From Candidatus Levybacteria bacterium RIFCSPHIGHO2_01_FULL_37_17 (GTDB taxonomy: Bacteria; Patescibacteriota; Microgenomatia; Levybacterales; UBA12049): a stretch of 64,000 bases of DNA. A model generated the notes under the pieces. It was not told where the DNA came from. It worked only from the letters and a program-made list of their open reading frames with translations, and ran no database searches. This document shows, piece after piece, positions 1-56,140 of the stretch. Position 1 is the first letter of the stretch. Every line of letters begins with the position of its first letter. The position numbers were made by a program, and so were the translations under genes. The stretch is taken from positions 60,865-124,864 of the forward strand of contig MFNL01000002.1 of the NCBI GenBank assembly GCA_001782035.1, in the 5' to 3' direction.

Positions 1-1795
1 AAGTTTTTTTGTCGTCAAAAGAAATTTTAGAAAAATCTATTTCTAATTTTTTATTAGTGCTAATAAAAAAGAGAGCTTCCTGAATAATCGTTAAATTTCT
101 CAAGCCCAAAAAGTCCATCTTTAAAAGTCCGACTCCGTTATAATCAGCTCCAATTGAATACATATCGTATTGGGTAATTATTTTTTCTCCATTGGTTTCA
201 CGCTGTAGCGGGCTGTATTCGGTTATATCTTTGTCGGCTATTACTACCCCTGCAGCATGAACTGAGGCGTGTCTTGCCACACCCTCAACTTTTCTTGCCA
301 AAGTCAAAATTTTTCTTGTATCTTCTTCCATGTTATAAGCAATTGAAAGCTCAGGACTTTGCTCCAAAGCTTTATCTATTGTCATTGCATGTCCCTGCCA
401 GCCAGGTGGAATCATTTTGGATATTCTGTCAGGAATTGAATATGGATACCCCAATACTCTTCCAATGTCTCGTACGGACCCTCTTGCTTCCATAGTTCCA
501 AAGGTTATTATTTGCGCAACCTTATCGCGTCCATATTTTTGCCTAACGTACTCTATAACCTCATCTCTTCTGTTATCTGCAAAATCTAAATCTATATCCG
601 GAGGCGAAGGACGCATGGGGTTGAGAAATCGTTCAAAGGGGAGTTTAAAAAACAGAGGGTCAATATCTGATATACCCAGCGCATATGATACTATAGAGCC
701 CGCATTAGACCCTCGGCCTGGGCCAACTGTTATACCTTTATCTTTGGCCCAGTTTACAAAGTCAGCGACTATAAGAATATAAGTTTCGTATCCTTTTTTT
801 AATATCACGGACAATTCGTACTGCGCTCTTTCTTTCATTTCTGCAGTAACTTTCCCGTATCTTCTTAGTAGGCCTTCGTCAACTTTTTCAACAATAAAGT
901 CCTTTGTAGTTTTGCCTTCGGGAACCTCAAAATTTGGGAGTATCCATTTATCCATTGGTATTTCAACATTACACATCTGTTCAATTTTTATTGTATTTTC
1001 TAATGCTTCCGGGTTTTGTATGAATAGGCCGGTCATTTCATCTGGAGATTTAATGTAAAAATCTGGAGAATCTATCATTGTAAGTTTTCTACCTCTTGTA
1101 TCTAACAGTGTTTGGGTTTGGATACACAAGAGTGCCTCTTGTGCTTGGGCGTCATCTGCTCTTATATAATGGTTGTCGTTTGTTGCAACCAATGGAATCC
1201 CTAACTCATCTGAAAGAGAAATTAATTTAGCATTAAGTATCTCTTGGTCAGGTATATTTGTATGTTTCTGAAGTTCCAAATAAAAATTATCTTCTCCAAA
1301 TATTTCTTCAAGCTTTAGCGCTCTTTCTTTAGCAGTTTTATTCTCATTCTTCATCAAGGGTTCCGAAACAAAACCATTCAAACAAGCACTTAGACATATC
1401 AGTCCTTGGGAGTATTTCTTTAAGAGGTCTAGGTCAGTTCTTGGTCTGTAGTAGTATCCCTCTAAATTCGCAATTGATATTATTTTCATTAAATTTTTAT
1501 ATCCTATTAAATCTTTTGCCAAAAGTATTAAATGGTTTGCGTCTGCGTCAATCCCTGCTTCTTTATCCAATCTTGTACGTTTTGCTACATAGATTTCCGC
1601 ACCAATTATCGGCTTTACCCCTTCGGCAATACATGCCTTATAAAATTGTATAGTCCCATACATGTTCCCATGATCTGTGATGGCAATTGCTTTCATGTTA
1701 AGCTCTTTAACTCTTTTTACCATCTCGGGAATTTTTGAGAGTCCGTCTAGAAGGGAATACTCACTGTGATTATGAAGGTGTACAAACTCAGCCAT
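1..1795 (-). CDS. dnaE: DNA polymerase III alpha subunit, N-terminal portion (PHP domain); the gene continues beyond the window start
   Basis: Reverse translation from ATG (rc of 1793-1795) reads MAEFVHLHNHSEYSLLDGLSKIPEMVKRVKELNMKAIAITDHGNMYG..., the classic PHP HxH / DnaE N-terminus. The frame stays open to position 1. It is absent from the ORF track because it is truncated by the window edge. Confidence 0.85.
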   Translation of the reverse strand, partial: MAEFVHLHNHSEYSLLDGLSKIPEMVKRVKELNMKAIAITDHGNMYGTIQFYKACIAEGVKPIIGAEIYVAKRTRLDKEAGIDADANHLILLAKDLIGYKNLMKIISIANLEGYYYRPRTDLDLLKKYSQGLICLSACLNGFVSEPLMKNENKTAKERALKLEEIFGEDNFYLELQKHTNIPDQEILNAKLISLSDELGIPLVATNDNHYIRADDAQAQEALLCIQTQTLLDTRGRKLTMIDSPDFYIKSPDEMTGLFIQNPEALENTIKIEQMCNVEIPMDKWILPNFEVPEGKTTKDFIVEKVDEGLLRRYGKVTAEMKERAQYELSVILKKGYETYILIVADFVNWAKDKGITVGPGRGSNAGSIVSYALGISDIDPLFFKLPFERFLNPMRPSPPDIDLDFADNRRDEVIEYVRQKYGRDKVAQIITFGTMEARGSVRDIGRVLGYPYSIPDRISKMIPPGWQGHAMTIDKALEQSPELSIAYNMEEDTRKILTLARKVEGVARHASVHAAGVVIADKDITEYSPLQRETNGEKIITQYDMYSIGADYNGVGLLKMDFLGLRNLTIIQEALFFISTNKKLEIDFSKISFDDKKT

Positions 1796-2499: not shown

Positions 2500-3861
2500 T
2501 TATTTTATTTTCGCGAGTAAACTCGCCTTAACTTTTGATGCATCAATTTTTTGTGGGAAATTATGCATCACTTGTCCCACTAAAAACATTATAGCGTTTT
2601 CTTTCCCCCTTTTGTAGTCCGAAACCGCGGTTTCGTTTTCTCTTAGGACTAATTCTATGGCTTTATCCAACTCTTTGTCATCGATGTCGGCAGTTGTTGT
2701 AGAGCTTTTGAACTGGTTAATTAATTGCTTAGTAAGATTTGGAACAAGGTTTTGGTCAATTTTCTCTTCTGGCTTATTAGCAAGGAAGTTTCCGAATTTA
2801 CCCAATTGTTCTTTGGGTAGTATATTTTCTTTAATCACGGCCTCAAATACCTGGGTTCTGTACTTTGAAGCCGAAATAGACGCACCGGATGCATTTGATA
2901 CCCCTAGACCTACGTAAAAATTAGCTTTTTCTTTAGGAGAATTTTTTCTAGCCTCCTCCAATAAATTCTTGACTTCAGTTTTCCAATTATTTCTTTGTTC
3001 ATCAGTCCATCTAAATGGAGGAATATCTGGTTCTGGAAAATATCTGTAGTCAGATGCTTCTTCTTTTATTCTTTGAGAAACTGTTGATTGAGTTTTCTCG
3101 ATAAAACCCCTTGTTTCCTGCACAGGCGTTTCTCCTTTATCTAGTATTTCCCTCTGTCTTGCTAACTCAAATTCAATTGCCCTTTCAACAAATTTAAATG
3201 AATTAATATTCTTTACTTCGACTTTATAACTGGGCCGTTTTTCTCCTTCTTTCCTCAAGGATATGTTTGGTTCAAGTCTCATTTCACCTTTCTCCATATC
3301 TGCGTTTGAAATTCCCAGATATCGAACTATTTGCTTAAGAGACTTTAGGTACTCTGTTACTTCGAAGGGATTTACAAAATCTGGTTCAGTTACTATTTCA
3401 ACTAACGGAACCCCGGAGCGGTTAAAGTCAATGAGCGTTAAGTCACCTTCATGAATTAATTTTCCTGTATCCTCTTCCATATGAACTCTTCGAACATCTA
3501 TTTTTTTCTCCTTGTTTTGGCTATTTGGTTCTTGCTTGATAAAAACTTCACCATCAACTGCAAAGGGTTGGTCGTATTGGCTTATTTGATAGCCTTTGGG
3601 TAAATCTGGATAAAAGTAGTTTTTTCGATCAAACCTAGAGAATGGAGGAATCTCGCAATTCAATGCGTACCCGAGCATTATGCACCATTCGATAGCTTTT
3701 TTATTTGGAACAGGAAGTGCACCTGGAAGCCCTAAACATACTGGGCATGTATGCGTATTTGGTTTTTTACCAAAGTAGTCTGCAGAGCATCTGCAAAACA
3801 TCTTTGATTTTGTTTTCAGCTCTACGTGAACTTCTAAGCCGATAACAGGGGTATATTTCAT
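2500..3861 (-). CDS. gatB: Asp/Glu-tRNA(Asn/Gln) amidotransferase subunit B
   Basis: N-terminus VIGLEVHVELKTKSKMFCRC...CPVCLGLPGALPV is the GatB signature. Confidence 0.9.
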   Translation of the reverse strand: MKYTPVIGLEVHVELKTKSKMFCRCSADYFGKKPNTHTCPVCLGLPGALPVPNKKAIEWCIMLGYALNCEIPPFSRFDRKNYFYPDLPKGYQISQYDQPFAVDGEVFIKQEPNSQNKEKKIDVRRVHMEEDTGKLIHEGDLTLIDFNRSGVPLVEIVTEPDFVNPFEVTEYLKSLKQIVRYLGISNADMEKGEMRLEPNISLRKEGEKRPSYKVEVKNINSFKFVERAIEFELARQREILDKGETPVQETRGFIEKTQSTVSQRIKEEASDYRYFPEPDIPPFRWTDEQRNNWKTEVKNLLEEARKNSPKEKANFYVGLGVSNASGASISASKYRTQVFEAVIKENILPKEQLGKFGNFLANKPEEKIDQNLVPNLTKQLINQFKSSTTTADIDDKELDKAIELVLRENETAVSDYKRGKENAIMFLVGQVMHNFPQKIDASKVKASLLAKIK

Positions 3862-5294
3862 AAATTTGGTCTTTTCTTCCTCCAGTTCTCATTTGCAGTT
3901 GCCATTTCATATTGATGTGCGACTTGTAAAACCAAGTCTTCTGCAAATTGACGGCCTATTATTTGCATGCCAATAGGTAGCATGCTTTTAGAGAATCCTA
4001 TGGGAATATTTATTCCAGGCAATCCTGCGATAGATGAGGGTTCGACTAGTATGTCGGCTATTTCCCCAAACATTGCAGCATTTTCGCTAGCTCCTGCGTG
4101 AAGTGGAAGAGATGGGGAAGTTGGACCTAGTATCACATTAACTTTTTCAAATGCTTTTTCAAAGTCGTTTACTATTAAAGATCTTGCCTTAGCCGCTCTA
4201 TTGTAATACTGGTTATAATATCCGGATGACAACGAATAGGTTCCGAGCACAATTCTTCTTTTTGCTTCCTCACCGAACAATTTTCTGTCCTTTCCAAAGC
4301 GTACTCCATCGTAACGGGCAAGATTTGAAGATACCTCACTCCTTTGAATTATTGTATAGACAGAAGTGGCATATTTTGGTTTGACTAGATTAATTTTTAC
4401 AATCTTCGCACCCATTTTTTCGAGTTTTTCAATTGAGAGCCGAACAGCCGACTCAACTTCCTTGTCAATTCCATCAATAAAGTACTCGTCTGATATCCCT
4501 ATCTTGAGATTTTTTATTTTGTTATCTACTACAGGCAATGTATAATCCCCTACCGGTGGTAGGGAAGTAGTAGCATCAAATTCATCAGTTCCTGCTAAGA
4601 CCCGTAGCAATAAAGCAGAATCCTCAACTGTTTTTGTAATCGGCCCTGGGGAGTCCAACGAAGATGCCATTGCAATAACACCATACCTTGAAACTCTTCC
4701 ATAGGTTGGCTTAAGTCCAACAACTCCGCACCATGATGCAGGCTGTCTTATAGAACCGGCTGTCTCGCTTCCAATAGCTGCTATCGCCTCGTCGGCAGCC
4801 ACAGCCGCAGCAGAGCCCCCGGAAGAACCTCCGGGCAAATGTTTTGTATTCCAAGGGTTTTTTGTTGAACCGTAATCGGAAGTTTCAGTAGACGAACCAT
4901 GTGCCCATGCATCCATATTTGTTTTGCCAATTAGCACAGCTCCTGCGTCTTTCAGTTTCTTAACAACAGTTGCATCATACGGAGGGATATAATCGTCCAA
5001 AACTTTACTAGAAGCAGTAGTTCTAATACCCATAGTAGAGAAATTATCTTTCACCGCAATAGGTATTCCTAAAAGAGGCAAATCTTGATTACTGGAAAGA
5101 AGTTTATCTGCTTTTCTAGCTGCAGAGACTACATCATCGTAAGTTGGTGCAATTGGTTTTATAAATGCATTTATTTTTTTATCAACTTTTTCTATCTGAG
5201 CTAAACAGGCCTCGGTAAGGTCAAATGAGCTAAATTCTCTTTTTATTAATCCCTCTTTTGCTTGCTTAATGGTCAACGAGTTTAATTCAGTCAT
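3858..5294 (-). CDS. gatA: Glu-tRNA(Gln) amidotransferase subunit A (amidase signature family)
   Basis: GGSSGGSAAAVAA amidase signature. The start is probably the internal Met (MTELNSLTIKQ); the ORF could extend to 5327. Confidence 0.88.
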   Translation of the reverse strand: MTELNSLTIKQAKEGLIKREFSSFDLTEACLAQIEKVDKKINAFIKPIAPTYDDVVSAARKADKLLSSNQDLPLLGIPIAVKDNFSTMGIRTTASSKVLDDYIPPYDATVVKKLKDAGAVLIGKTNMDAWAHGSSTETSDYGSTKNPWNTKHLPGGSSGGSAAAVAADEAIAAIGSETAGSIRQPASWCGVVGLKPTYGRVSRYGVIAMASSLDSPGPITKTVEDSALLLRVLAGTDEFDATTSLPPVGDYTLPVVDNKIKNLKIGISDEYFIDGIDKEVESAVRLSIEKLEKMGAKIVKINLVKPKYATSVYTIIQRSEVSSNLARYDGVRFGKDRKLFGEEAKRRIVLGTYSLSSGYYNQYYNRAAKARSLIVNDFEKAFEKVNVILGPTSPSLPLHAGASENAAMFGEIADILVEPSSIAGLPGINIPIGFSKSMLPIGMQIIGRQFAEDLVLQVAHQYEMATANENWRKKRPNL

Positions 5295-27646: not shown

Positions 27647-28606
27647 ATGTTAATAGACGAAGTAGTAGTAACAATTAAAGCCGGTAATGGCGGAAACGGC
27701 GCAATTAGTTTTAAACGGAATGCCCAAACTGCAAAAGGAGGTCCAGATGGTGGAAATGGAGGCAAAGGGGGAGATGTTTACATTGTTGGCGCACGTGATA
27801 TAGATACTCTTACTACTTTTAGATATCAAAAAGTAGTAAGGGCAGAAGACGGAATAAATGGAGGGAAATATAACCTGTACGGCAAAAATGCAGAAGACAA
27901 GATTATTAAGGTTCCACTTGGAACGATTACTACTAATCTAGAAAGCGGTAACTCTTTCGAAATCAATAGTGAAGAAGATAAATTCCTTATCGCAAAAGGT
28001 GGTAAGGGTGGAAGGGGTAATAATGAATTTAAATCATCAACTACGCAAGCTCCAAGATATAGAGAGTTAGGGGGGATTGGTGAAGAAAAGAAAATTAAGT
28101 TAGAACTTAAAATAATTGCCGACATAGGATTAATAGGGCTTCCCAATGCCGGAAAAAGCAGCTTGCTCTCAGTTCTTACAAATGCTCACCCTAAAATAGC
28201 AGATTATCCCTTCACGACCCTTGAACCAAATTTAGGAGTTTTTGATTCGAAAATAATCGCCGATATTCCAGGTCTTATAGAAGGAGCCTCTCGCGGTAAG
28301 GGATTGGGAGATAAATTTTTAAAACACATAGAAAGAACAAGACTTTTAGTCCATTGCATAGACTCTAGCTCTCAGACTCCAACAGCCGATTATAAAACAA
28401 TTAGAAAAGAATTGGAGGAGTTTAATTCAGAATTACTAGATAAAAAAGAGATGGTTGTTTTGACAAAGCAAGATTTAATTGATGAAAAAAAACAAAAAGA
28501 ATTGGAAGCTACCTTTAAAAGAATGAAAAAGGAGATTGTTTTTTTATCTTTATATAATGACAATAGTTTAGACGAGCTAAAAAAAGTACTTCATGAAGCA
28601 ATTTAG
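27647..28606 (+). CDS. obg: GTPase Obg/CgtA
   Basis: Gly-rich Obg fold (GGNGGNGAISF...GGPDGGNGGKGGDVY) and G-domain GLIGLPNAGKSSLL. Confidence 0.9.
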   Translation: MLIDEVVVTIKAGNGGNGAISFKRNAQTAKGGPDGGNGGKGGDVYIVGARDIDTLTTFRYQKVVRAEDGINGGKYNLYGKNAEDKIIKVPLGTITTNLESGNSFEINSEEDKFLIAKGGKGGRGNNEFKSSTTQAPRYRELGGIGEEKKIKLELKIIADIGLIGLPNAGKSSLLSVLTNAHPKIADYPFTTLEPNLGVFDSKIIADIPGLIEGASRGKGLGDKFLKHIERTRLLVHCIDSSSQTPTADYKTIRKELEEFNSELLDKKEMVVLTKQDLIDEKKQKELEATFKRMKKEIVFLSLYNDNSLDELKKVLHEAI

Positions 28607-28612
28607 CCGCAA

Positions 28613-28640
28613 AAAAACCCCTTGCGGGGTCTTTTCGGGG
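28613..28640 (+). terminator. rho-independent terminator after obg
   Basis: aaaaaaCCCCttgcGGGGtcttttcgg: a GC stem followed by a T-tract. Confidence 0.6.
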
Positions 28641-28759
28641 CGATTAATATTGCTATTAATCTCCTGCCTTTTTATACTTACGTATTGAAGGTAAAAAACA
28701 TTATATATAGCAATTTATGCATTGTCAATAGGGTAAAAATAGGTCAAACTAGACCAATA

Positions 28760-29104
28760 TTAGAATACATCAACCTTTGGACTCCTTGGATATACTTCTC
28801 TTACTTCTGCAAGTGTCTTTTTGCCAATTCCATGTACCTGTCCGTTTCCCGTTACCCTCCACATCACCTCCGTATCGGATAACTCACTTATCTGCTCGGG
28901 AGTTGTAAGTCGTTCATCTCTAATAGCAAGCCTAATACATCTTCTTGCTCTTGATGATAAATCAGAAAAACGTTCGTACATAACCGCATTGTACTCCAAA
29001 TGTTTCAGAATTGGGATTATTGAAGATCTCTCGGAAGAAACGAATCGGGCATTGGCTCCGTGTAGGATACGGTTGCTTGAGATAGTATTTTCCACTTCAT
29101 ACAA
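28760..29104 (-). CDS. RNA polymerase alpha-CTD-like HhH domain protein (possibly the 3' half of a frameshifted gene)
   Basis: LSSRARRCIRLAIRDERLTTPEQISELSDTEVMWRVTGNGQVHGIGKKTLAEVREV resembles the alphaCTD HhH. The frame is only open from a TTG. It overlaps ORF 29017..29421 by 88 nt in another frame. Confidence 0.35.
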   Translation of the reverse strand: MYEVENTISSNRILHGANARFVSSERSSIIPILKHLEYNAVMYERFSDLSSRARRCIRLAIRDERLTTPEQISELSDTEVMWRVTGNGQVHGIGKKTLAEVREVYPRSPKVDVF

Positions 29105-29421
29105 TTGTCTCGTACTACTGACCTTGCTCTATTTTTTGCCATCTCTATAGCATCGTCAGACGTTTCTCCTCTGCCCGACAAATGTTCCCTTAGTGGACAT
29201 GAATCGCAATTTAATAGCCCGACAGCATTATAAAGATATAAGAGATTATTTGTTGTTGGCTTGCTGGCGACTGTTACTTCTGCCTCACAAATAACATCTG
29301 GCTGTAATTCGGGCTTGTGCGGCTCCCTTTCTGGACTATGTCTACTTTCAAATGATTCAAAACTTGGTCCTCTTTCTCCCATAATGTAGGGGATAATACC
29401 AAATACAAGATAGAATGTCAA
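29017..29421 (-). CDS. hypothetical protein (possibly the 5' half of a frameshifted gene), Arg/Glu/Pro-rich
   Basis: ORF in a GC-rich island; contains the NCDSCP motif; no confident family. Confidence 0.3.
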   Translation of the reverse strand: MTFYLVFGIIPYIMGERGPSFESFESRHSPEREPHKPELQPDVICEAEVTVASKPTTNNLLYLYNAVGLLNCDSCPLREHLSGRGETSDDAIEMAKNRARSVVRDNCMKWKILSQATVSYTEPMPDSFLPRDLQ

Positions 29422-29621
29422 ACTATGGGATTACGAGTACCCCAAGTGTTTAAGAATTGTCATGATCCTGAGTTTTTTCGGAGGAGAACCAGATTCGTGG
29501 CTCTTTAGAGAAGTGGAAAAACATACTTCAACCTGAGGCTAATCCTGCTCTGTTTATTAACCGTCATTAGAGAGTGGAATTAATAAGCAACTCAACCTAT
29601 AGTTGATATATTTATTTTCAT

Positions 29622-30566
29622 TTGCTATACTCCACCATTATGAATGAACGATCAAATGCAGAAAGGGCTGAAGCAGTAACAAAATATACCGTAGAAATTC
29701 GTTCCATAAATGAGGATGGTGCTATTAGATTAAGAGACGAAGGATTGGCAGTTGCCCGAGAAATGGGTGTTCCAGGCTTTTTAGCAGTTTATAGTAGAAC
29801 TGGCATGGAAGAGACTACGCAAGTTCAAGGTGCAGCAACACTTCTTAACGTTGAAGTTGCAAGGGCAAAAATAAAAACAGTTTTAGCAGTTAGGCGATCT
29901 TCAAGACTTCAACGGGAAAGAATGGCAGAAAAAGGTCAAACAAGAGAAGACTTCGGTGGTCAGTTGGGAAGTCTTTTTGGTGGAGGGATTGCTTTGTTCG
30001 CCGATGAAGCAAGAACACAATTTATTGGAGCCATGGCATTTAGTGGAGGGACTCAAGAAGAAGACGAGGAAATTTGTAGAAGAGCTGTGGAGAGAATAGG
30101 TCTATATACAGATGTAGATCCAGTCTTAACCCAAAGCGTCAATGAAGAACAAGCTAATGACCGACTACAAACTTTTACATTTGATGGAGAACCTCTCAGG
30201 GTATCATACCAGGATACTGAGCACGTTGCTGAAGGTGTAGAATGTGACGTCTACCGATTTGAGGGAGACGATACCAAGGACTTAGGAATAATTAAGGTTA
30301 AGCCAGGTTTTAGTACACCACGACAAAGAGTTTTAGATGGAGATAGAACAATTGAGGGATACATGTCGGGCAAGGGTAAGCTTATTATTACCAAACCCGA
30401 TGGGACAATTGATAGTTATTCGTTTGATCAAGACACGCTAAATTTTACATTAAATGTGAGGATTGGCGAAATAATGCAGTGGCAAGCAGATACAGAATTT
30501 CCCTTAGTTGCATCTGAAGTGTGTTTTCCTCCCTACAATAATGATAGATACGAGAGAGTTGCTTAG
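29622..30566 (+). CDS. two-domain protein: N-terminal GlcG/HbpS-like (DUF336) domain plus an unknown C-terminal domain
   Basis: N-terminal 150 aa carry GlcG hallmarks (GVPGFLAVY..., FGGGIALF, FIGAMAFSGGTQEEDEEICRRAVERIG). The C-terminal 160 aa have no recognisable motif. Confidence 0.55.
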   Translation: MLYSTIMNERSNAERAEAVTKYTVEIRSINEDGAIRLRDEGLAVAREMGVPGFLAVYSRTGMEETTQVQGAATLLNVEVARAKIKTVLAVRRSSRLQRERMAEKGQTREDFGGQLGSLFGGGIALFADEARTQFIGAMAFSGGTQEEDEEICRRAVERIGLYTDVDPVLTQSVNEEQANDRLQTFTFDGEPLRVSYQDTEHVAEGVECDVYRFEGDDTKDLGIIKVKPGFSTPRQRVLDGDRTIEGYMSGKGKLIITKPDGTIDSYSFDQDTLNFTLNVRIGEIMQWQADTEFPLVASEVCFPPYNNDRYERVA

Positions 30567-30729
30567 CTTGTTGTATTAATCTAACTTCACAAGATCTATG
30601 TACTCCAAATGTTTAGGAATTGGAACCAGATACGAGCTTCAATCAGACATGGGATCGTATATTGAATCCTAGCCTCAGTTCAGCATTACAGCTTAGCTAC
30701 CAATAGGGAGTGGAAATAGTTGATTAGAT

Positions 30730-31035
30730 TTACCTTCTTCCGTCTAACATTGGAGTTGGTGCAATTTTTTCAACCATTCTTTCAATAGCTTCTGTAGGAA
30801 TATCACCCGTATCGTATGTAACAAAAGCTGCACCTTTCGGAACTCTGGCATTTCCATCAGGATATGGAGCTCCTTCATCAGCAACTATTCTAAATGGAAG
30901 ATCAAAACGACCAAGTACTTCTCTAAGAGCGAAAGCTCTTTCAAGACTTACAGTACTTGTATGTGGCAAAATTTCATTTGGATTTCTTTCAGGCAATCTT
31001 TCTGGCATGATTGAGGAATTATAATACTTGAACAA
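30730..31035 (-). CDS. hypothetical small Arg/Pro-rich protein
   Basis: 101-aa ORF in the GC-rich island; no family recognised. Confidence 0.3.
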   Translation of the reverse strand: MFKYYNSSIMPERLPERNPNEILPHTSTVSLERAFALREVLGRFDLPFRIVADEGAPYPDGNARVPKGAAFVTYDTGDIPTEAIERMVEKIAPTPMLDGRR

Positions 31036-31061
31036 GCGAATGTCAATACTATGAGCTCTTG

Positions 31062-31134
31062 TACCGCGTAGGGGAGTCGAACCCCTGATTCCCTGGCTGA
31101 AAACCAGGTGTCCTAGGCCACTAGACGAACGCGG
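31062..31134 (-). tRNA. tRNA-Glu (TTC)
   Basis: rc reads GCCGCGTTCGTCTAGTGGCCTAGGACACCTGGTTTTCAGCCAGGGAATCAGGGGTTCGACTCCCCTACGCGGTA; anticodon loop TTTTCAG. Confidence 0.85.
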
Positions 31135-31179
31135 CAGGACAGATATTATACCTTAAAATTAACTTTTAAGGCAAACTAT

Positions 31180-51772: not shown

Positions 51773-51847
51773 TGGGTGGATGACGGGTAACGCTCCCGCT
51801 GCCTCCTGGACCACAACCAGGCGTTCTGCTTTTGAACTACATCCACC
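51773..51847 (-). tRNA. tRNA-His (GTG) with encoded G-1 and CCA; non-canonical D- and T-loops
   Basis: rc reads G-GTGGATG TA GTTC AAAAGCA GAAC G CCTGG TTGTGGT CCAGG AGGCA GCGGG AGCGTTA CCCGT CATCCAC C CCA. The D-loop lacks GG and the T-loop lacks the TTC. Confidence 0.6.
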
Positions 51848-51873
51848 ATGCTTACACTGAGTAAATCGAAGTG

Positions 51874-51946
51874 CGACCCTGGAGGGAATCGAACCCCCAA
51901 CCTGGTGCTTAGAACGCACTCGCTCTATCCGTTGAGCTACAGGGCC
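51874..51946 (-). tRNA. tRNA-Arg (TCT)
   Basis: rc reads GGCCCTGTAGCTCAACGGATAGAGCGAGTGCGTTCTAAGCACCAGGTTGGGGGTTCGATTCCCTCCAGGGTCG. Confidence 0.8.
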
Positions 51947-52005
51947 ATGCTCATATTTTATCAAAAATACCCTCGAAACAAAAGACTCGCTAGTGTATAA
52001 TCGAG

Positions 52006-52860
52006 TTGAATTTATTGATGAAAAAAATATTTATTCAACAAATCGTTCCCGTTGCTCTCACAATTTTAACTTTCCTCGTACTTTCTACATGTCTTTATGG
52101 TTTGCTTCTTTTATTAAATTTATTGCCATTATCTGAAAAAATTCTACTAGATTTTAATAAACGGGACGTATTAATCGGAATAGCTATTTATTTAAAAACA
52201 GCGATTGACTTCGCAATATTTATAGGTAACTTAATGCACACAAACCCCGGATGGAAGAAGCGTATTGCAATAGAGCTGGGAACGGCTGTGGGTAATGCAT
52301 TTGGTACATTTGCAGTCCTTATTGTGTGGGTTTTATTTAAGGAAGTGCCAATCTTAATGATGCTTATGATATTTGTAGCATCGATTGTGTTATTAAGAAT
52401 GGCTCAAGAAAGTCTTGAGGAATTTCTAAAACAGAAAAAAAGTTTTATCGATATAAAAATGCCCGTTTATCTTCTTCAGTCTCAACTGAATTTCGTAAAT
52501 AAATTATTTCGTCCAATTCTTAAATTTGTAGTGCCGCATTTGAACTTAACGAGGGTTAAAAAACTGTCATTTGTTAATTTAGCAGTTTTTTCATTTACGA
52601 TACCTTTTATTTTGGGTTTGGACGATTTTGCTGGTTATGTTCCGTTATTCAATGTGATTAATCTATTTGGATTTGCCCTTGGAGTAATGCTTGGGCACAT
52701 GATTTTAAATATAGGATTATTTATCTGGCCAACTAAAACTGTACAAATAGTAAGGCACCCATTTGTACTAATAATAGGTGGATTGGCTTTTGTCGGTCTT
52801 GCTTTGTGGGGTTTTTACGAAGTCTTCAAGCTATTTACATTTAATATAATGAGCGGGTGA
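52006..52860 (+). CDS. hypothetical multi-pass membrane protein
   Basis: 284 aa with about 7 hydrophobic helices. Its 3' end overlaps the convergent tRNA-Gly(TCC) by about 8 nt. Confidence 0.4.
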   Translation: MNLLMKKIFIQQIVPVALTILTFLVLSTCLYGLLLLLNLLPLSEKILLDFNKRDVLIGIAIYLKTAIDFAIFIGNLMHTNPGWKKRIAIELGTAVGNAFGTFAVLIVWVLFKEVPILMMLMIFVASIVLLRMAQESLEEFLKQKKSFIDIKMPVYLLQSQLNFVNKLFRPILKFVVPHLNLTRVKKLSFVNLAVFSFTIPFILGLDDFAGYVPLFNVINLFGFALGVMLGHMILNIGLFIWPTKTVQIVRHPFVLIIGGLAFVGLALWGFYEVFKLFTFNIMSG

Positions 52861-52922
52861 AGGGAATCGAACCCTCGTATCAACTTTGGAAAAGTTGTGT
52901 TCTGCCATTGAACTACACCCGC
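52852..52922 (-). tRNA. tRNA-Gly (TCC)
   Basis: rc reads GCGGGTGTAGTTCAATGGCAGAACACAACTTTTCCAAAGTTGATACGAGGGTTCGATTCCCTTCACCCGCT. Confidence 0.85.
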
Positions 52923-53071
52923 CAAATGGGACAAACCTCGCGGTTTTCCCCAACGATTTCCATTTAAGGATAGCAAAATCGGAACTCTTAATCCAGCGAT
53001 TTTGCTTAATCGTAGATAAATTATTATACAAAACATTTGAAGTTTGCTCAAGAATTCGCTACGATATTTTT

Positions 53072-53377
53072 ATGTCACAAGGGATTAATCATTTTCACGG
53101 ACATAAAAAACCAGTTACTCCTTTTGATCATTTAATGTATGCTGTAGCTTTAATAGCACCACTTCTTACTGTTCCTCAATTCCTAGATGTGTGGATAAGA
53201 AAGGATGCATCGGGCCTTTCACTTTTTACATGGAGCGCCTATACAGTTATGTCTTTTCTTTGGCTCTTATATTGGAAAGAGCACCATAAAACGTGGATCC
53301 TTCTTGGGCATATTATTATTCTTTTACTTAATGCTGGGATTGTACTTGGAATCTTGATTTACGGTAAGTCGGGGTGA
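53072..53377 (+). CDS. SemiSWEET/PQ-loop-like small 3-TM membrane protein
   Basis: About 100 aa with three TM helices and a PQ motif in TM1 (TVPQFLDVW). The start is placed at the Met downstream of the overlapping tRNA. Confidence 0.4.
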   Translation: MSQGINHFHGHKKPVTPFDHLMYAVALIAPLLTVPQFLDVWIRKDASGLSLFTWSAYTVMSFLWLLYWKEHHKTWILLGHIIILLLNAGIVLGILIYGKSG

Positions 53378-53440
53378 GAGGAATTGGACCTCTTACTTCT
53401 CGGTCCCAAACCGAGCGTTCTACCGATGAACTACACCCCG
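53369..53440 (-). tRNA. tRNA-Pro (TGG)
   Basis: rc reads CGGGGTGTAGTTCATCGGTAGAACGCTCGGTTTGGGACCGAGAAGTAAGAGGTCCAATTCCTCTCACCCCGA. C1-G72 is typical of bacterial tRNA-Pro. The T-loop reads TCCAATT. Confidence 0.8.
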
Positions 53441-53442
53441 TG

Positions 53443-53513
53443 CTGCCGAGCTTGGATTCGAACCAAAATAAACGGATCCAAAGTCCGTTGTCCTACCATT
53501 AGACGACTCGGCA
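53443..53513 (-). tRNA. tRNA-Gln (TTG)
   Basis: rc reads TGCCGAGTCGTCTAATGGTAGGACAACGGACTTTGGATCCGTTTATTTTGGTTCGAATCCAAGCTCGGCAG. U1-A72 is typical of bacterial tRNA-Gln. Confidence 0.8.
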
Positions 53514-53627
53514 ATGCTTCAATTCTATCAATTTTTTGCTCAGTTGAAAAGCGAAGCACATTGCCGTAAAATTGTTTTACGTCATATTTTGTCCGCTTGC
53601 CTCGCTTTGCGGGACAAGAACTGACGA

Positions 53628-53712
53628 GCCGTGGTGGTGGAATGGCAGACACGAGGGCCTTAAGAGCCTTTGTCCCTAAACGGACGTGAGAGTTCGACTC
53701 TCTCCCGCGGCA
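53628..53712 (+). tRNA. tRNA-Leu (TAA), class II with a long variable arm
   Basis: GCCGTGGTGGTGGAATGGCAGACACGAGGGCCTTAAGAGCCTTTGTCCCTAAACGGACGTGAGAGTTCGACTCTCTCCCGCGGCA. Confidence 0.85.
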
Positions 53713-53715
53713 CAA

Positions 53716-54822
53716 TTAAAGCATGTCGGGATTAATTTTAATGATTTTATCATCTCCTGATTTCGAAACCCCTCTTCCATCCAAATTACTTGTAGTTATA
53801 TATAGAAAATTATCCGGCCCCAAAACTACATCTCTTAATCTTCCATATTCATTCTTAAAATACTCCGTTAATTGTTGCGTTGAAATATTATACTTGTAGA
53901 AAGCCTCTCCTTTTAGACCGCCAAAATATAATGAGCCATTGTGATATGCAAGACCGGCAGGTGCCCAAACATTTCTATCTGATTGCAATACGGGCCCCAC
54001 AGTTCCTGATCTAACGCTCTGGCCGACGCTTTCCGGCCAGCCGTAGTTTTTGCCTTCTTCTATTTTATTTATTTCGTCTTGGCAACAATTAGGCCAAATT
54101 CCAGAAGGACCATGCTCTGTTTCCCAAAGTTGTCCTGACTCATCCCAAGCAATTCCTTGTGGATTCCTGTGTCCGTATGAATAAATCGCAACTTTTCCAT
54201 CTCTTTCAACCCGCAATATTTTTCCAGCAAATGAATCCCTATCTTGTGCCAAAGAGGACTGCGTCGCATCACCGGTTGTAATATAAAGCAGGCCATCTGG
54301 CCCAAACTTAATTCTGCCTCCGTTGTGATAAATTCCGCCAGGAATTTCGTCAACTATGATTTTTTCTTCAGATAAAGAGCCATTCTTATAAGTTAATCTA
54401 ACCACTCGATTAAGAGTATTATTTCCGTTTCCGCTATATGTGTAGTAAAAATAAATAAAATTGTTTGAAGAAAAATTTGGGTCCAAGGCCATTCCCATAA
54501 GACCGCCTTCTCCGTATTCTTTTACATTTCCAAGCTTCGTAATCTCACTTTTTTCTTTTTTTCTTATCAGAGCAACTGTTCCATTTCTCTCGGTAATAAG
54601 CATTGAGTTATCAGGAAGAAAAGCAATTGACCAAGGAGTGTCTAATTGTTCCGCGATTACCGTTATATTCTTAGAAGGAGTTTCACTTTTAGGTTTTAAC
54701 GTGTTAAGACTTGGGAATACGGAGTCTTTATTAATAAATATGACAAAGAATGCTAATCCGACCAAAATCAAGATTATTAATAAAACTATTCTCATAACAA
54801 TAATATAACGTATTTTAAACAA
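53716..54822 (-). CDS. PQQ-dependent soluble sugar (glucose/sorbosone) dehydrogenase-like beta-propeller, membrane-anchored
   Basis: GSDH-family motifs (HNGGRIKFGPDGLLYITTGDATQSSLAQD...GKILRV, YSYGHRNPQGIAWD). Confidence 0.7.
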   Translation of the reverse strand: MFKIRYIIVMRIVLLIILILVGLAFFVIFINKDSVFPSLNTLKPKSETPSKNITVIAEQLDTPWSIAFLPDNSMLITERNGTVALIRKKEKSEITKLGNVKEYGEGGLMGMALDPNFSSNNFIYFYYTYSGNGNNTLNRVVRLTYKNGSLSEEKIIVDEIPGGIYHNGGRIKFGPDGLLYITTGDATQSSLAQDRDSFAGKILRVERDGKVAIYSYGHRNPQGIAWDESGQLWETEHGPSGIWPNCCQDEINKIEEGKNYGWPESVGQSVRSGTVGPVLQSDRNVWAPAGLAYHNGSLYFGGLKGEAFYKYNISTQQLTEYFKNEYGRLRDVVLGPDNFLYITTSNLDGRGVSKSGDDKIIKINPDML

Positions 54823-54847
54823 AATATCTTACAGAGCTATAAATTTT

Positions 54848-55816
54848 TTGTATAATATTCGAATTATGCGTGAAACTGTCCTAAAGTTTTTTAGCCTTCT
54901 TATTAGCAAATTTGCTTTCGCTTTTATAATCACCACTCTACTTACAGGAATAATTTTAATACCATTTGTTATTAAAAACACTTATAAAATAAACCAAGCA
55001 CCTAAGCCTCTGCTCGATATAGTCCCCACTAAAATTATTACCAAAACGCCTACCGCAACACCTAGCCCTACATTAAAACCTATTCCGTCCAATATCATTG
55101 CGCCAACGAGTCCTCCTGTTGTAATAAATAATGTAGCTCCAGGATCTGGCTACAACAGGCAAACTGTTGCAATATCAGAAGGAAATTTTATCGTGGATAT
55201 TATAGCTGCGGATTTAAATACAACCAGAGTAATCGTTGACACTGCATCTGATTCTGATTGCTTCGATAATTGCCCAGTACTTCCGCTTTCAGATTATGTA
55301 TCAAGGAGTGGAGGATTTGCGGGTATCAATGGTACGTATTTCTGTCCGGCTTCATATCCATCATGTGCCGGCAAAGTTAATTCGTTCGATTTATTGGTTA
55401 TGAATAAAAACAAATATTATTTTAATTCCTCCAATAATGTTTACAGCACAAACCCTGCAGTAATCTTTTATGGCAACTCTGTAAGGTTTGTCGGGCAAGC
55501 GCTTGAATGGGGAAGGGACACTGGTGTAGATGCTGTAATCTCAAACTTTCCATTATACGTAAGCGGCGGAAATGCTGTAGCACAAGGGGGAGTGAGGGGA
55601 TTTAAATCATTTATCGGAAATAAAGGGAGCACGGTTTATATTGGATTCGTACGAAATGCAACCGCAGGAGAAACTGCAAAGGTTTTGCAAGCCTTAGGTT
55701 TGGAAAATGCGATGGGCTTGGACCAAGGAGGTTCCACTGCTTTAATGTATAACAGCTCCTATATTCTTGGCCCTGGTCGCGGGATACCAAATGCTGTCCT
55801 ATTTGTGCGTAAATAG
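54848..55816 (+). CDS. phosphodiester glycosidase (NAGPA/DUF2233) family protein, N-terminal TM
   Basis: GGFAGINGTYF... and LDQGGSTALMYN motifs typical of DUF2233. Confidence 0.6.
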   Translation: MYNIRIMRETVLKFFSLLISKFAFAFIITTLLTGIILIPFVIKNTYKINQAPKPLLDIVPTKIITKTPTATPSPTLKPIPSNIIAPTSPPVVINNVAPGSGYNRQTVAISEGNFIVDIIAADLNTTRVIVDTASDSDCFDNCPVLPLSDYVSRSGGFAGINGTYFCPASYPSCAGKVNSFDLLVMNKNKYYFNSSNNVYSTNPAVIFYGNSVRFVGQALEWGRDTGVDAVISNFPLYVSGGNAVAQGGVRGFKSFIGNKGSTVYIGFVRNATAGETAKVLQALGLENAMGLDQGGSTALMYNSSYILGPGRGIPNAVLFVRK

Positions 55817-55900
55817 TGCCCAAGGGGAGATTCGAACTCCCAAGTCCTTGCGGACACAGCGTTCTGAACGCTGCGCGTCTGCCAGTTTCGCCACCTGGGC
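55817..55900 (-). tRNA. tRNA-Leu (CAG), class II
   Basis: rc reads GCCCAGGTGGCGAAACTGGCAGACGCGCAGCGTTCAGAACGCTGTGTCCGCAAGGACTTGGGAGTTCGAATCTCCCCTTGGGCA. Confidence 0.85.
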
Positions 55901-55905
55901 ATTTG

Positions 55906-55977
55906 TGGGCCCTGAGGGACTTGAACCCCCGACACCTGCGATGTAAACGCAGTGCTCTACCACTGAGCTAAGAGCCC
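55906..55977 (-). tRNA. tRNA-Val (TAC)
   Basis: rc reads GGGCTCTTAGCTCAGTGGTAGAGCACTGCGTTTACATCGCAGGTGTCGGGGGTTCAAGTCCCTCAGGGCCCA. Confidence 0.85.
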
Positions 55978-55980
55978 TGG

Positions 55981-56064
55981 TGCGGATGAGAGGACTCGAA
56001 CCTCCACGCTTTTTACGGCACAGCCACCTCAAGGCTGCGTGTATACCAGTTTCACCACATCCGC
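55981..56064 (-). tRNA. tRNA-Leu (GAG), class II
   Basis: rc reads GCGGATGTGGTGAAACTGGTATACACGCAGCCTTGAGGTGGCTGTGCCGTAAAAAGCGTGGAGGTTCGAGTCCTCTCATCCGCA. Confidence 0.8.
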
Positions 56065-56067
56065 GTG

Positions 56068-56140
56068 TGCTGAGGGCGTGAGTCGAACACGCATAGCCTG
56101 TTCTTCAGACAGGTGCCTTGACCACCTTGGCTACCTCAGC
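56068..56140 (-). tRNA. tRNA-Phe (GAA)
   Basis: rc reads GCTGAGGTAGCCAAGGTGGTCAAGGCACCTGTCTGAAGAACAGGCTATGCGTGTTCGACTCACGCCCTCAGCA. The D-stem is 3 bp with a long D-loop. Confidence 0.7.

Follow-up and report, generated by a model that had tools for sequence, protein, structure and literature searches.

Why does one short motif occur three times, always on the same strand, between obg and a tRNA-Glu gene in the genome of a Levybacteria bacterium? We addressed this question for a stretch of 64,000 nucleotides from Candidatus Levybacteria bacterium RIFCSPHIGHO2_01_FULL_37_17 (contig MFNL01000002.1, positions 60,865 to 124,864), hereafter called the window. It is low in GC and rich in tRNA genes, as is typical of the candidate phyla radiation (CPR)/Microgenomates. 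A repeat search of the window returned a 25-nt family (TGTACYCCAARTGTTTnnGAATTGK) at positions 28990, 29436 and 30599; identity to the reference copy was 80-92%. All three copies lie within a 2.4-kb segment between obg (27647-28606) and tRNA-Glu(UUC), and the 3' end of this tRNA faces the copies. An original prediction, made from the sequence without database searches, had described them as an operator-like palindrome that could be either a transcription-factor binding site or the terminal motif of a small repeated element, with one copy splitting a gene. We conclude that the motif is very probably the P' half-site of the attachment site of integrative elements whose mobility depends on a large serine recombinase (LSR) and whose target is the extreme 3' end of tRNA genes. 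The anatomy of the arrays, their polarity towards the tRNA, the LSR gene, its reading frame across the common core in integrated, free and tandem forms and a shifted T-loop-like motif were all observed directly; the steps of integration and decay that would connect them are our reading of these sequences.

The 119-nt unit and its arrays at tRNA genes

The repeat is much longer than the original prediction had seen. In the alignment conservation extends over ∼119 nt, from GTACCCCAAATGTTTnnGAATTGGAAYCAG to TAACTACCATTAGGGATTAGAA, and the flanks are unrelated on both sides. We refer to this sequence, which starts with GTACCCCAAATGTTTnnGAATTGGAACC, as unit U. In each copy the motif first noticed corresponds to the first 25-28 nt of the unit. 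Copies 2 and 3 (U2 and U3) are full units of ∼119 nt, and copy 1 (U1) consists of the first 28 nt.

The three copies are real and all lie on the plus strand. A simple chance test was weak (0.58 matches expected at ≤3 mismatches, with three matches in 3 of 100 shuffles). That the copies are far above chance follows from the exact 16-mer common to copies 1 and 3 and from the scores of a full-unit profile, which are listed with the features of the window below; this profile gave no further significant match in the 64 kb. Some details of the first description had to be adjusted. The coordinates of copy 1 (28990-29016) were correct, but copy 2 starts at 29436 and not at 29441 and copy 3 at 30599 and not at 30598. 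The shared 16-mer was confirmed, whereas the number of mismatches between copies 1 and 3 is 3 of 27 and not 2 of 29. There is a palindrome but it is weak: CCAAAT and AATTGG pair at 5 of 6 positions and the predicted pairing comprises only CCAA/TTGG. The suggestion that the motif terminates a small repeated element was right in spirit: mobile cassettes are delimited by a 119-nt unit, and the motif is the conserved terminus of this unit.

About half of the units contain an intact frame of 32 codons from ATG to stop (MFxNWNQIRxSLxxWR...NYH-stop), with the stop codon kept as TAG or TAA, and the mean entropy of the unit by codon position is 0.93, 0.68 and 1.08. Many units, including all three in the window, are frame-broken or substituted at otherwise invariant positions. 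The consensus fold of 11 units computed with RNAalifold contained only 4 invariant pairs (−1.5 kcal/mol) and no covariation, and in the Rfam search only tRNAs matched, at the gathering threshold or at E ≤ 10. A structured RNA was considered and rejected on the basis of this fold and the lack of an Rfam match for the unit. No terminal inverted repeats or target-site duplications were visible around the units.

Our first motif scan used one genome per species and returned 11 loci, which belong to Levyibacteriota, Daviesbacteria and metagenome-assembled genomes (MAGs) that are labelled Gammaproteobacteria and carry CPR-type genes. A scan of metagenomes added 74 loci, and the loci were mapped with the unit profile and ARAGORN. 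Counting the window, 72 loci had a strong unit and none had more than 4; most of these loci come from CPR/Microgenomates genomes and metagenomes. Some metagenome matches (L014, L048, L023, L040, L055, L058, L060 and others) have the 19-nt pattern only or no unit and are probably due to chance. In all 72 loci the units of one locus share the same strand. The first tRNA after the array faces it with its 3' end in 29 of the 29 loci where a tRNA is in view (16 Glu-UUC, 6 Glu-CUC, 4 Lys-CUU and 3 Arg-UCU), and the backbone around the arrays is syntenic with the window. We found 68 intervals between units, with a median length of 746 nt, most of which hold a single gene; these genes are unrelated to each other and occur in either orientation. 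Counting the genes beside units, 49 were on the same strand and 27 on the opposite strand. The cargo includes HAD hydrolases, GNAT acetyltransferases, SDR, an epimerase, a beta-lactamase fold, peptidase S51, zeta toxin, CopG and RpiB. A phage origin was considered and rejected, since a scan of 2.9 million viral contigs did not detect the motif. In the MAGs labelled 'uncultured Gammaproteobacteria' (L001, L002, L008, L009) we observed units, cassettes and a tRNA context as in the Levyibacteriota loci; these bins are probably mislabelled.

The recombinase gene, its reading frame and the probable attachment site

An LSR gene is associated with the loci L052/L067, L086, L087 and L088. In L052/L067 the last gene before tRNA-Glu encodes a protein of 524 aa with Pfam matches to Resolvase (3e-35) and Recombinase (3e-17) and a weak match to the Zn-ribbon; it is a large serine recombinase. 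Its open reading frame (ORF) crosses the core (...TTL-V-P-P-R-G-F-E-P), reading GTA CCG and then the translated T-arm of the tRNA. The unit is in the same frame as the LSR, with GTA CCC CAA ATG giving V P Q M. As the two frames agree, the protein of an excised circle should end in ...TTLVPQMFxNWNQ...NYH.

A protein search with this predicted excised form returned 852 homologues. Among the best 120 of these the C-terminus translates the tRNA T-arm (GFEP-like) in 92 cases and carries a U-type tail in at least 6, including P0003 (...TTLVPQMFKNWNQ), P0020 (...NLVPQMILHWNQLLSNLRAW), P0037 and P0043. P0020 is encoded on L086, which is Logan contig SRR22000240_7499 (12,166 nt, GC 31%, no tRNA). Here the LSR ORF (3075-4634) passes GTAC into the unit (4527-4655) and ends at the stop codon of U. 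The contig has a terminal overlap of 29 nt and is probably circular, which makes it a candidate for the free form of the element family. Its genes are HTH repressor-like, the LSR with an intact attP, SRAP, a Y-family polymerase and an RVT_1 reverse transcriptase. P0003 (L087) and P0037 (L088) are the LSRs of array-distal elements and their ORFs continue into the unit of the next element and end at its stop codon. L088 (GCA_964597145.1, 243-kb contig) holds, at L088 10001-21566, two complete LSR elements of ∼10 kb in tandem with similar genes (IMS, SRAP, HTH). On the same contig the tail of another homologue, P0041, reads into a tRNA. C-terminal remnants of an LSR were found upstream of U in L030, L078, L085 and L007.

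The frame thus runs into the tRNA when the element is integrated and into U when it is free or in tandem. This places attP inside the LSR gene, and U would be the C-terminal tail of the LSR together with the P' half-site. Such a double role would account for both the coding-like conservation of the unit and its near-invariant first 28 nt, which would be constrained as coding sequence and as DNA site. Two side observations belong here. The diverged unit between the tandem elements of L088 starts with GTGAGCC (Lys-type core) and keeps ATTGGAACC at unit positions 20-28. Furthermore, the LSR homologues P0044-P0120 (36-41% identity), among them records named Acidobacteriia and Myxococcales, have ORFs that end in a translated T-arm (GFEP, GIEP), and it seems that an intragenic attP combined with a tRNA target is found far outside CPR bacteria as well.

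We propose the following course of events. In the free element attP would lie inside the 3' end of the LSR gene, which would encode ...K-T-T-L | V-P-Q-M-F-x-N-W-N-Q-I-R-x-S-L-x-x-W-R-...-N-Y-H-stop, with the GTA codon for V placed on the common core GTAC(C). Integration would fuse the main part of the LSR gene to the tRNA in reverse complement, and the last ∼35 LSR codons plus about 10 nt, which make up the 119-nt U, would remain at the opposite end of the element. Elements arriving later would integrate again at the tRNA end and push the older ones outward, and these older elements would drop the LSR gene and retain their cargo. The outcome would be an array of U-cargo, U-cargo, ..., tRNA. 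As a mechanism, integration by a serine integrase followed by tandem accretion is already known.

The geometry of the site was compared with the tRNA ends. GTAC(C) opens every unit as well as the reverse complement of the tRNA, and the junctions fall there; for tRNA-Glu the reverse complement (plus strand) starts with GTACCGCGTAGGGGAGTCGAACC. Unit positions 3-7 co-vary with the local tRNA end, with 96 matches out of 120 compared to 77.5 in shuffles and 96 reached in 0 of 20,000 shuffles. When unit positions 17-33 were compared with the tRNA ends we obtained an identity of 0.53 at a shift of 5 bp, 0.48 at 4 bp and 0.12-0.39 at the other shifts tested. The T-loop-like part of P', ATTGGAACC, lies ∼4-5 bp further out in the unit than its tRNA counterpart, ATTCGAACC. 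For serine integrases (LI integrase; PMC3783163) the zinc-ribbon-domain motif is placed 5 bp further out in attP than in attB, and the shift of 4-5 bp agrees with this published displacement. The relation emerged only with the units read in the opposite orientation and with a 5-nt gap. An attachment site that is a direct copy of the tRNA was also tried and rejected, as the alignment of the unit with tRNA-Glu gave a 10-nt T-loop-like match only. We infer that the crossover takes place within a few bases of GTAC, at a dinucleotide within this tetramer.

Cassettes of the window and their junctions

The array of the window is composed as follows.

28607-28990, no strand: distal flank from obg to U1; 28602-28808 is conserved post-obg backbone (tblastx: L044, L059, L041, L051).
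28991-29018, plus strand: U1, truncated to unit positions 1-28 (putative P' half-site only), C5>T; profile E = 1.8e-4, exact match to the 25-nt consensus.
29019-29436, no strand: remnant of cassette 1, 418 bp, orphan ORF only (29017-29421, minus strand); its right end abuts the GTAC of U2 (unit map).
29437-29581, plus strand: U2, full unit (profile positions 1-119, E = 2.3e-17), with A10>G; 26 nt are inserted at 29460-29485 after GAATTG.
29582-30599, plus strand: cassette 2 with a GlcG/HbpS-like gene of 314 aa (29622-30566, plus strand; Pfam HbpS-like, 2e-16).
30600-30716, plus strand: U3, full unit (profile positions 1-118, E = 5.8e-23), C5>T and a 1-nt deletion.
30717-31060, minus strand: cassette 3, nearest to the tRNA, with a 101-aa ORF (30730-31035, minus strand; no Pfam match).
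31061-31135, minus strand: tRNA-Glu(UUC) (ARAGORN and Rfam, 57 bits), the proposed integration target and B' half-site.

We read the three cassettes as decayed elements without an LSR gene because their units are altered, their right ends do not retain an LSR-type P arm and tblastn found no LSR gene in the 64-kb window. In U1 the sequence past unit position 28 does not align with the unit, the frame of U2 is broken from the GTA codon onward and that of U3 reaches a stop after 18 codons. Three decayed cassettes in a row would explain why the motif occurs three times on one strand, each time as the P' half of an attP that integration would have turned into an attL-type junction. U1, the most distal from the tRNA, would be the oldest junction scar if the order of insertion follows the order in the array.

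The junctions can be compared between loci. The GlcG-like cassette of the window has a counterpart in L002 (77% aa identity) that directly adjoins tRNA-Glu. In the window a block of 461 bp, made up of U3 and the 101-aa ORF, is found exactly between the GTAC of U3 and the GTACC of the tRNA, and this block is absent from L002. Its position at GTAC next to the tRNA fits an insertion at the tRNA-proximal end. Another cassette is ∼97% identical in L002 and L007 and ends at the next GTAC in both; in L002 this GTAC opens another unit, and in L007 it opens tRNA-Glu in reverse complement.

We made several further observations on the cassettes. Many of them end in the recurrent motif GCTTGATTTARCAAYCTAAYC, 0-15 nt from GTAC (for example L003 1882-1910, L006 2611-2640 and window 30570-30599). 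This motif resembles the LSR codons for GLPFNLI, the junction AATCGT|GTAC recurs, and at the cassette ends the motif is probably the remnant of a deletion. U2 and a unit from Daviesbacteria (L010, about 224-248, minus strand) have a homologous insertion of 25/26 nt after GAATTG and both show A10>G; the shared insertion holds an AGGAG-like stretch. In the cassette 2 gene the HbpS/GlcG-like domain is confined to residues 30-156 of 314 and the C-terminal half is without a Pfam match. An inverted match between 29077-29098 and 29510-29531 was considered as an inverted piece of U1 and was dropped, as the unit profile did not confirm it. In total the window contains 19 tRNA genes, several of which are tightly clustered (51774-56140).

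The original prediction had placed copy 1 inside the overlap of two ORFs, exactly where a gene appeared to be split. The overlap spans 29017-29104, and copy 1 lies just outside it and within the ORF 28760-29104 only. The minus-strand ORFs at 28760-29104 and 29017-29421 matched no Pfam family, and a search of 5.8 billion proteins returned no homologue of either. These overlapping ORFs, which had been taken for a split HhH gene (28760-29421), may not be genes, and nothing connects the motif to an HhH protein. Instead of a repeat that was inserted into a coding sequence and split it, we see an old junction that is marked by the first 28 nt of the unit, after which the unit is truncated.

Alternative explanations and related systems

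Could the cassettes be captured genes instead of decayed elements? As in an integron, cassettes of U and cargo without an LSR would then be mobile in trans through an LSR encoded elsewhere, with U in the role of attC and the tRNA end in the role of attI. Much of the array anatomy would suit this explanation: the 68 intervals are short and mostly hold one gene, the cargo is very diverse and includes toxin-antitoxin genes, the same cassettes occupy different ranks in different arrays with clean GTAC junctions, and the 461-bp block without an LSR sits exactly at the core. However, the right ends (P arm) of the cassettes without an LSR are degenerate and look like what a deletion would leave of the LSR gene at its 3' end. 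Many units, all three of the window among them, have frame-breaking indels or substitutions at invariant positions. In addition, the complete tandem elements of L088 indicate that whole elements do accrete, and no circular cassette without an LSR was seen. We therefore regard gene capture of this kind as unlikely. The coding signal could also come from an independent small gene for a 32-aa peptide (MFxNWNQIRxSLxxWR...NYH) that is repeated beside the cargo genes. An uninterrupted frame of exactly 32 codons, seen from ATG to stop in about half of the units, the kept stop codon and the codon-position entropies reported above are what such a gene would show. The frame is, however, continuous with the upstream LSR ORF in the free and tandem forms, which suffices for the coding signal, and there is no conserved ribosome-binding sequence before the ATG in the aligned upstream flanks. 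With many units frame-broken as well, we consider an independent peptide gene improbable.

We give hardly any credence to an operator that regulates the genes of the island. The short imperfect dyad CCAA-N11-TTGG is invariant and the copies lie near gene boundaries, but conservation covers all 119 nt of the unit, and these match the coding sequence at the 3' end of an integrase gene. The placement of the units is independent of the orientation of the neighbouring genes (the counts of 49 and 27 given above) and not promoter-like, their polarity to the tRNA is fixed and no homologues were found for the putative HhH ORF. An integron attC site or a repeat of the miniature inverted-repeat transposable element (MITE) type inserted into a gene is just as implausible to us. 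The region is a repeat array with single genes between the repeats and 119 nt is within the length range of attC sites and Vibrio cholerae repeats (VCR). Against this, the units lack a consensus hairpin, terminal inverted repeats, target-site duplications and an Rfam match, a scan for the H-x-L-R-H motif in 987 ORFs from 86 loci detected no tyrosine recombinase and the supposed split gene is without homologues. The copies occur only in arrays that face a tRNA, and the 64-kb window contains no other copy. From the original prediction the repeated element hence survives, and the operator and the split gene do not.

Several points also weigh against the attachment-site explanation that we favour. 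The homology of the cassette shared by L002 and L007 ends 3-8 nt short of GTAC, and the crossover cannot be placed to the base. The P arms at the right ends of cassettes without an LSR are degenerate and their spacing is variable. The dyad symmetry of attP is weak (at most 7 of 12), with the best centre on TA or AC of GTAC in 2 of 4 sites. The test for co-variation of unit positions 3-7 with the tRNA end ignores kinship among loci. The enzyme acting on the window is deduced from the LSRs of its relatives. Finally, the re-use of an occupied site is not textbook behaviour for serine integrases, which normally need a true attB.

Among known systems, large serine integrases such as phiC31, Bxb1 and A118/LI have the same Resolvase, Recombinase and Zn-ribbon architecture and a short common core, and their P' half-site repeats the B' motif ∼4-5 bp further from the centre. 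To our knowledge, the characterised serine integrases target protein-coding or intergenic sites, whereas the target here is the 3' terminus and T-arm of tRNA genes. Further differences are that attP lies inside the integrase coding sequence, so that integration would exchange the last ∼35 residues, and that occupied sites appear to be re-used, giving arrays. The 'suicidal' integrases of the SSV type (SSV1, pTN3, pT26-2) share the attP within the integrase gene, the tRNA target and the partitioning of the gene. They belong to archaeal viruses and plasmids, and their integrated copies are trapped and decay beside tRNA genes (PMC8371274). According to a 2021 review this internal-attP, tRNA-targeting arrangement is known only for archaeal tyrosine integrases (PMC8371274). 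The SSV-type enzymes are tyrosine recombinases of Archaea, while by its Pfam matches the enzyme here is a serine recombinase and is found in bacteria (CPR and others). Moreover, only the C-terminal ∼7% of the protein is detached here and replaced by a tRNA-encoded tail.

The nearest bacterial analogue that we know of is the composite staphylococcal cassette chromosome (SCC) island. SCCmec and composite SCC elements use the CcrAB serine recombinases and stand in tandem at one site, the 3' end of rlmH; some members lack recombinase genes and short direct repeats of the attachment site separate the elements. They differ in their protein-coding target, in repeats of ∼15-20 bp outside the recombinase gene and in the much larger size of the elements. 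Integron arrays and clusters of attC sites lacking integron-integrases (CALINs) resemble the present arrays in their mostly single-gene cassettes, very diverse accessory cargo and a repeat of ∼60-140 nt at each boundary, and a comparison between the window, L002 and L007 also fits a position of the newest cassette beside the insertion point, as in integrons. In contrast to integrons we found no IntI tyrosine recombinase and no hairpin-forming attC. The cassette genes point in either direction, the site of insertion is the 3' end of a tRNA gene, and the cassettes have the look of autonomous elements in decay and not of promoterless mobile units. In the literature we did not find tRNA-targeting serine integrases with an internal attP described, although our coverage was incomplete and prior work may exist. 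The combination of a tRNA target and an attP inside a serine-integrase gene appears to be undescribed.

It is conceivable, and we put this forward only tentatively, that these elements are a bacterial serine-recombinase counterpart of the archaeal 'suicidal' integrases which acts as a gene-capture system at tRNA genes. The zinc-ribbon domain of the LSR would then recognise the universally conserved T-loop DNA, and this could let related enzymes shift between tRNA species. The arrays of single-gene cassettes would be an integron-like store of accessory genes for CPR bacteria with their small genomes, and cassettes without an LSR might still be mobilised in trans. Replacement of the amphipathic tail (WNQIRxxLxxWR) by a tRNA-encoded tail would switch the activity, stability or directionality of the enzyme in an integration-dependent manner.

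Serine integrases that read the T-loop could be of interest to those who build integration tools. The 'island' of the window would be a dated stack of captured genes, and the arrays would mark where CPR/Microgenomates genomes have a variable hotspot. More broadly, the results point to a large clade of serine integrases that would target tRNA 3' ends with the attP inside their own gene and, if it is true that the exchange of the tail alters the behaviour of the enzyme, this would be a new way to control directionality.

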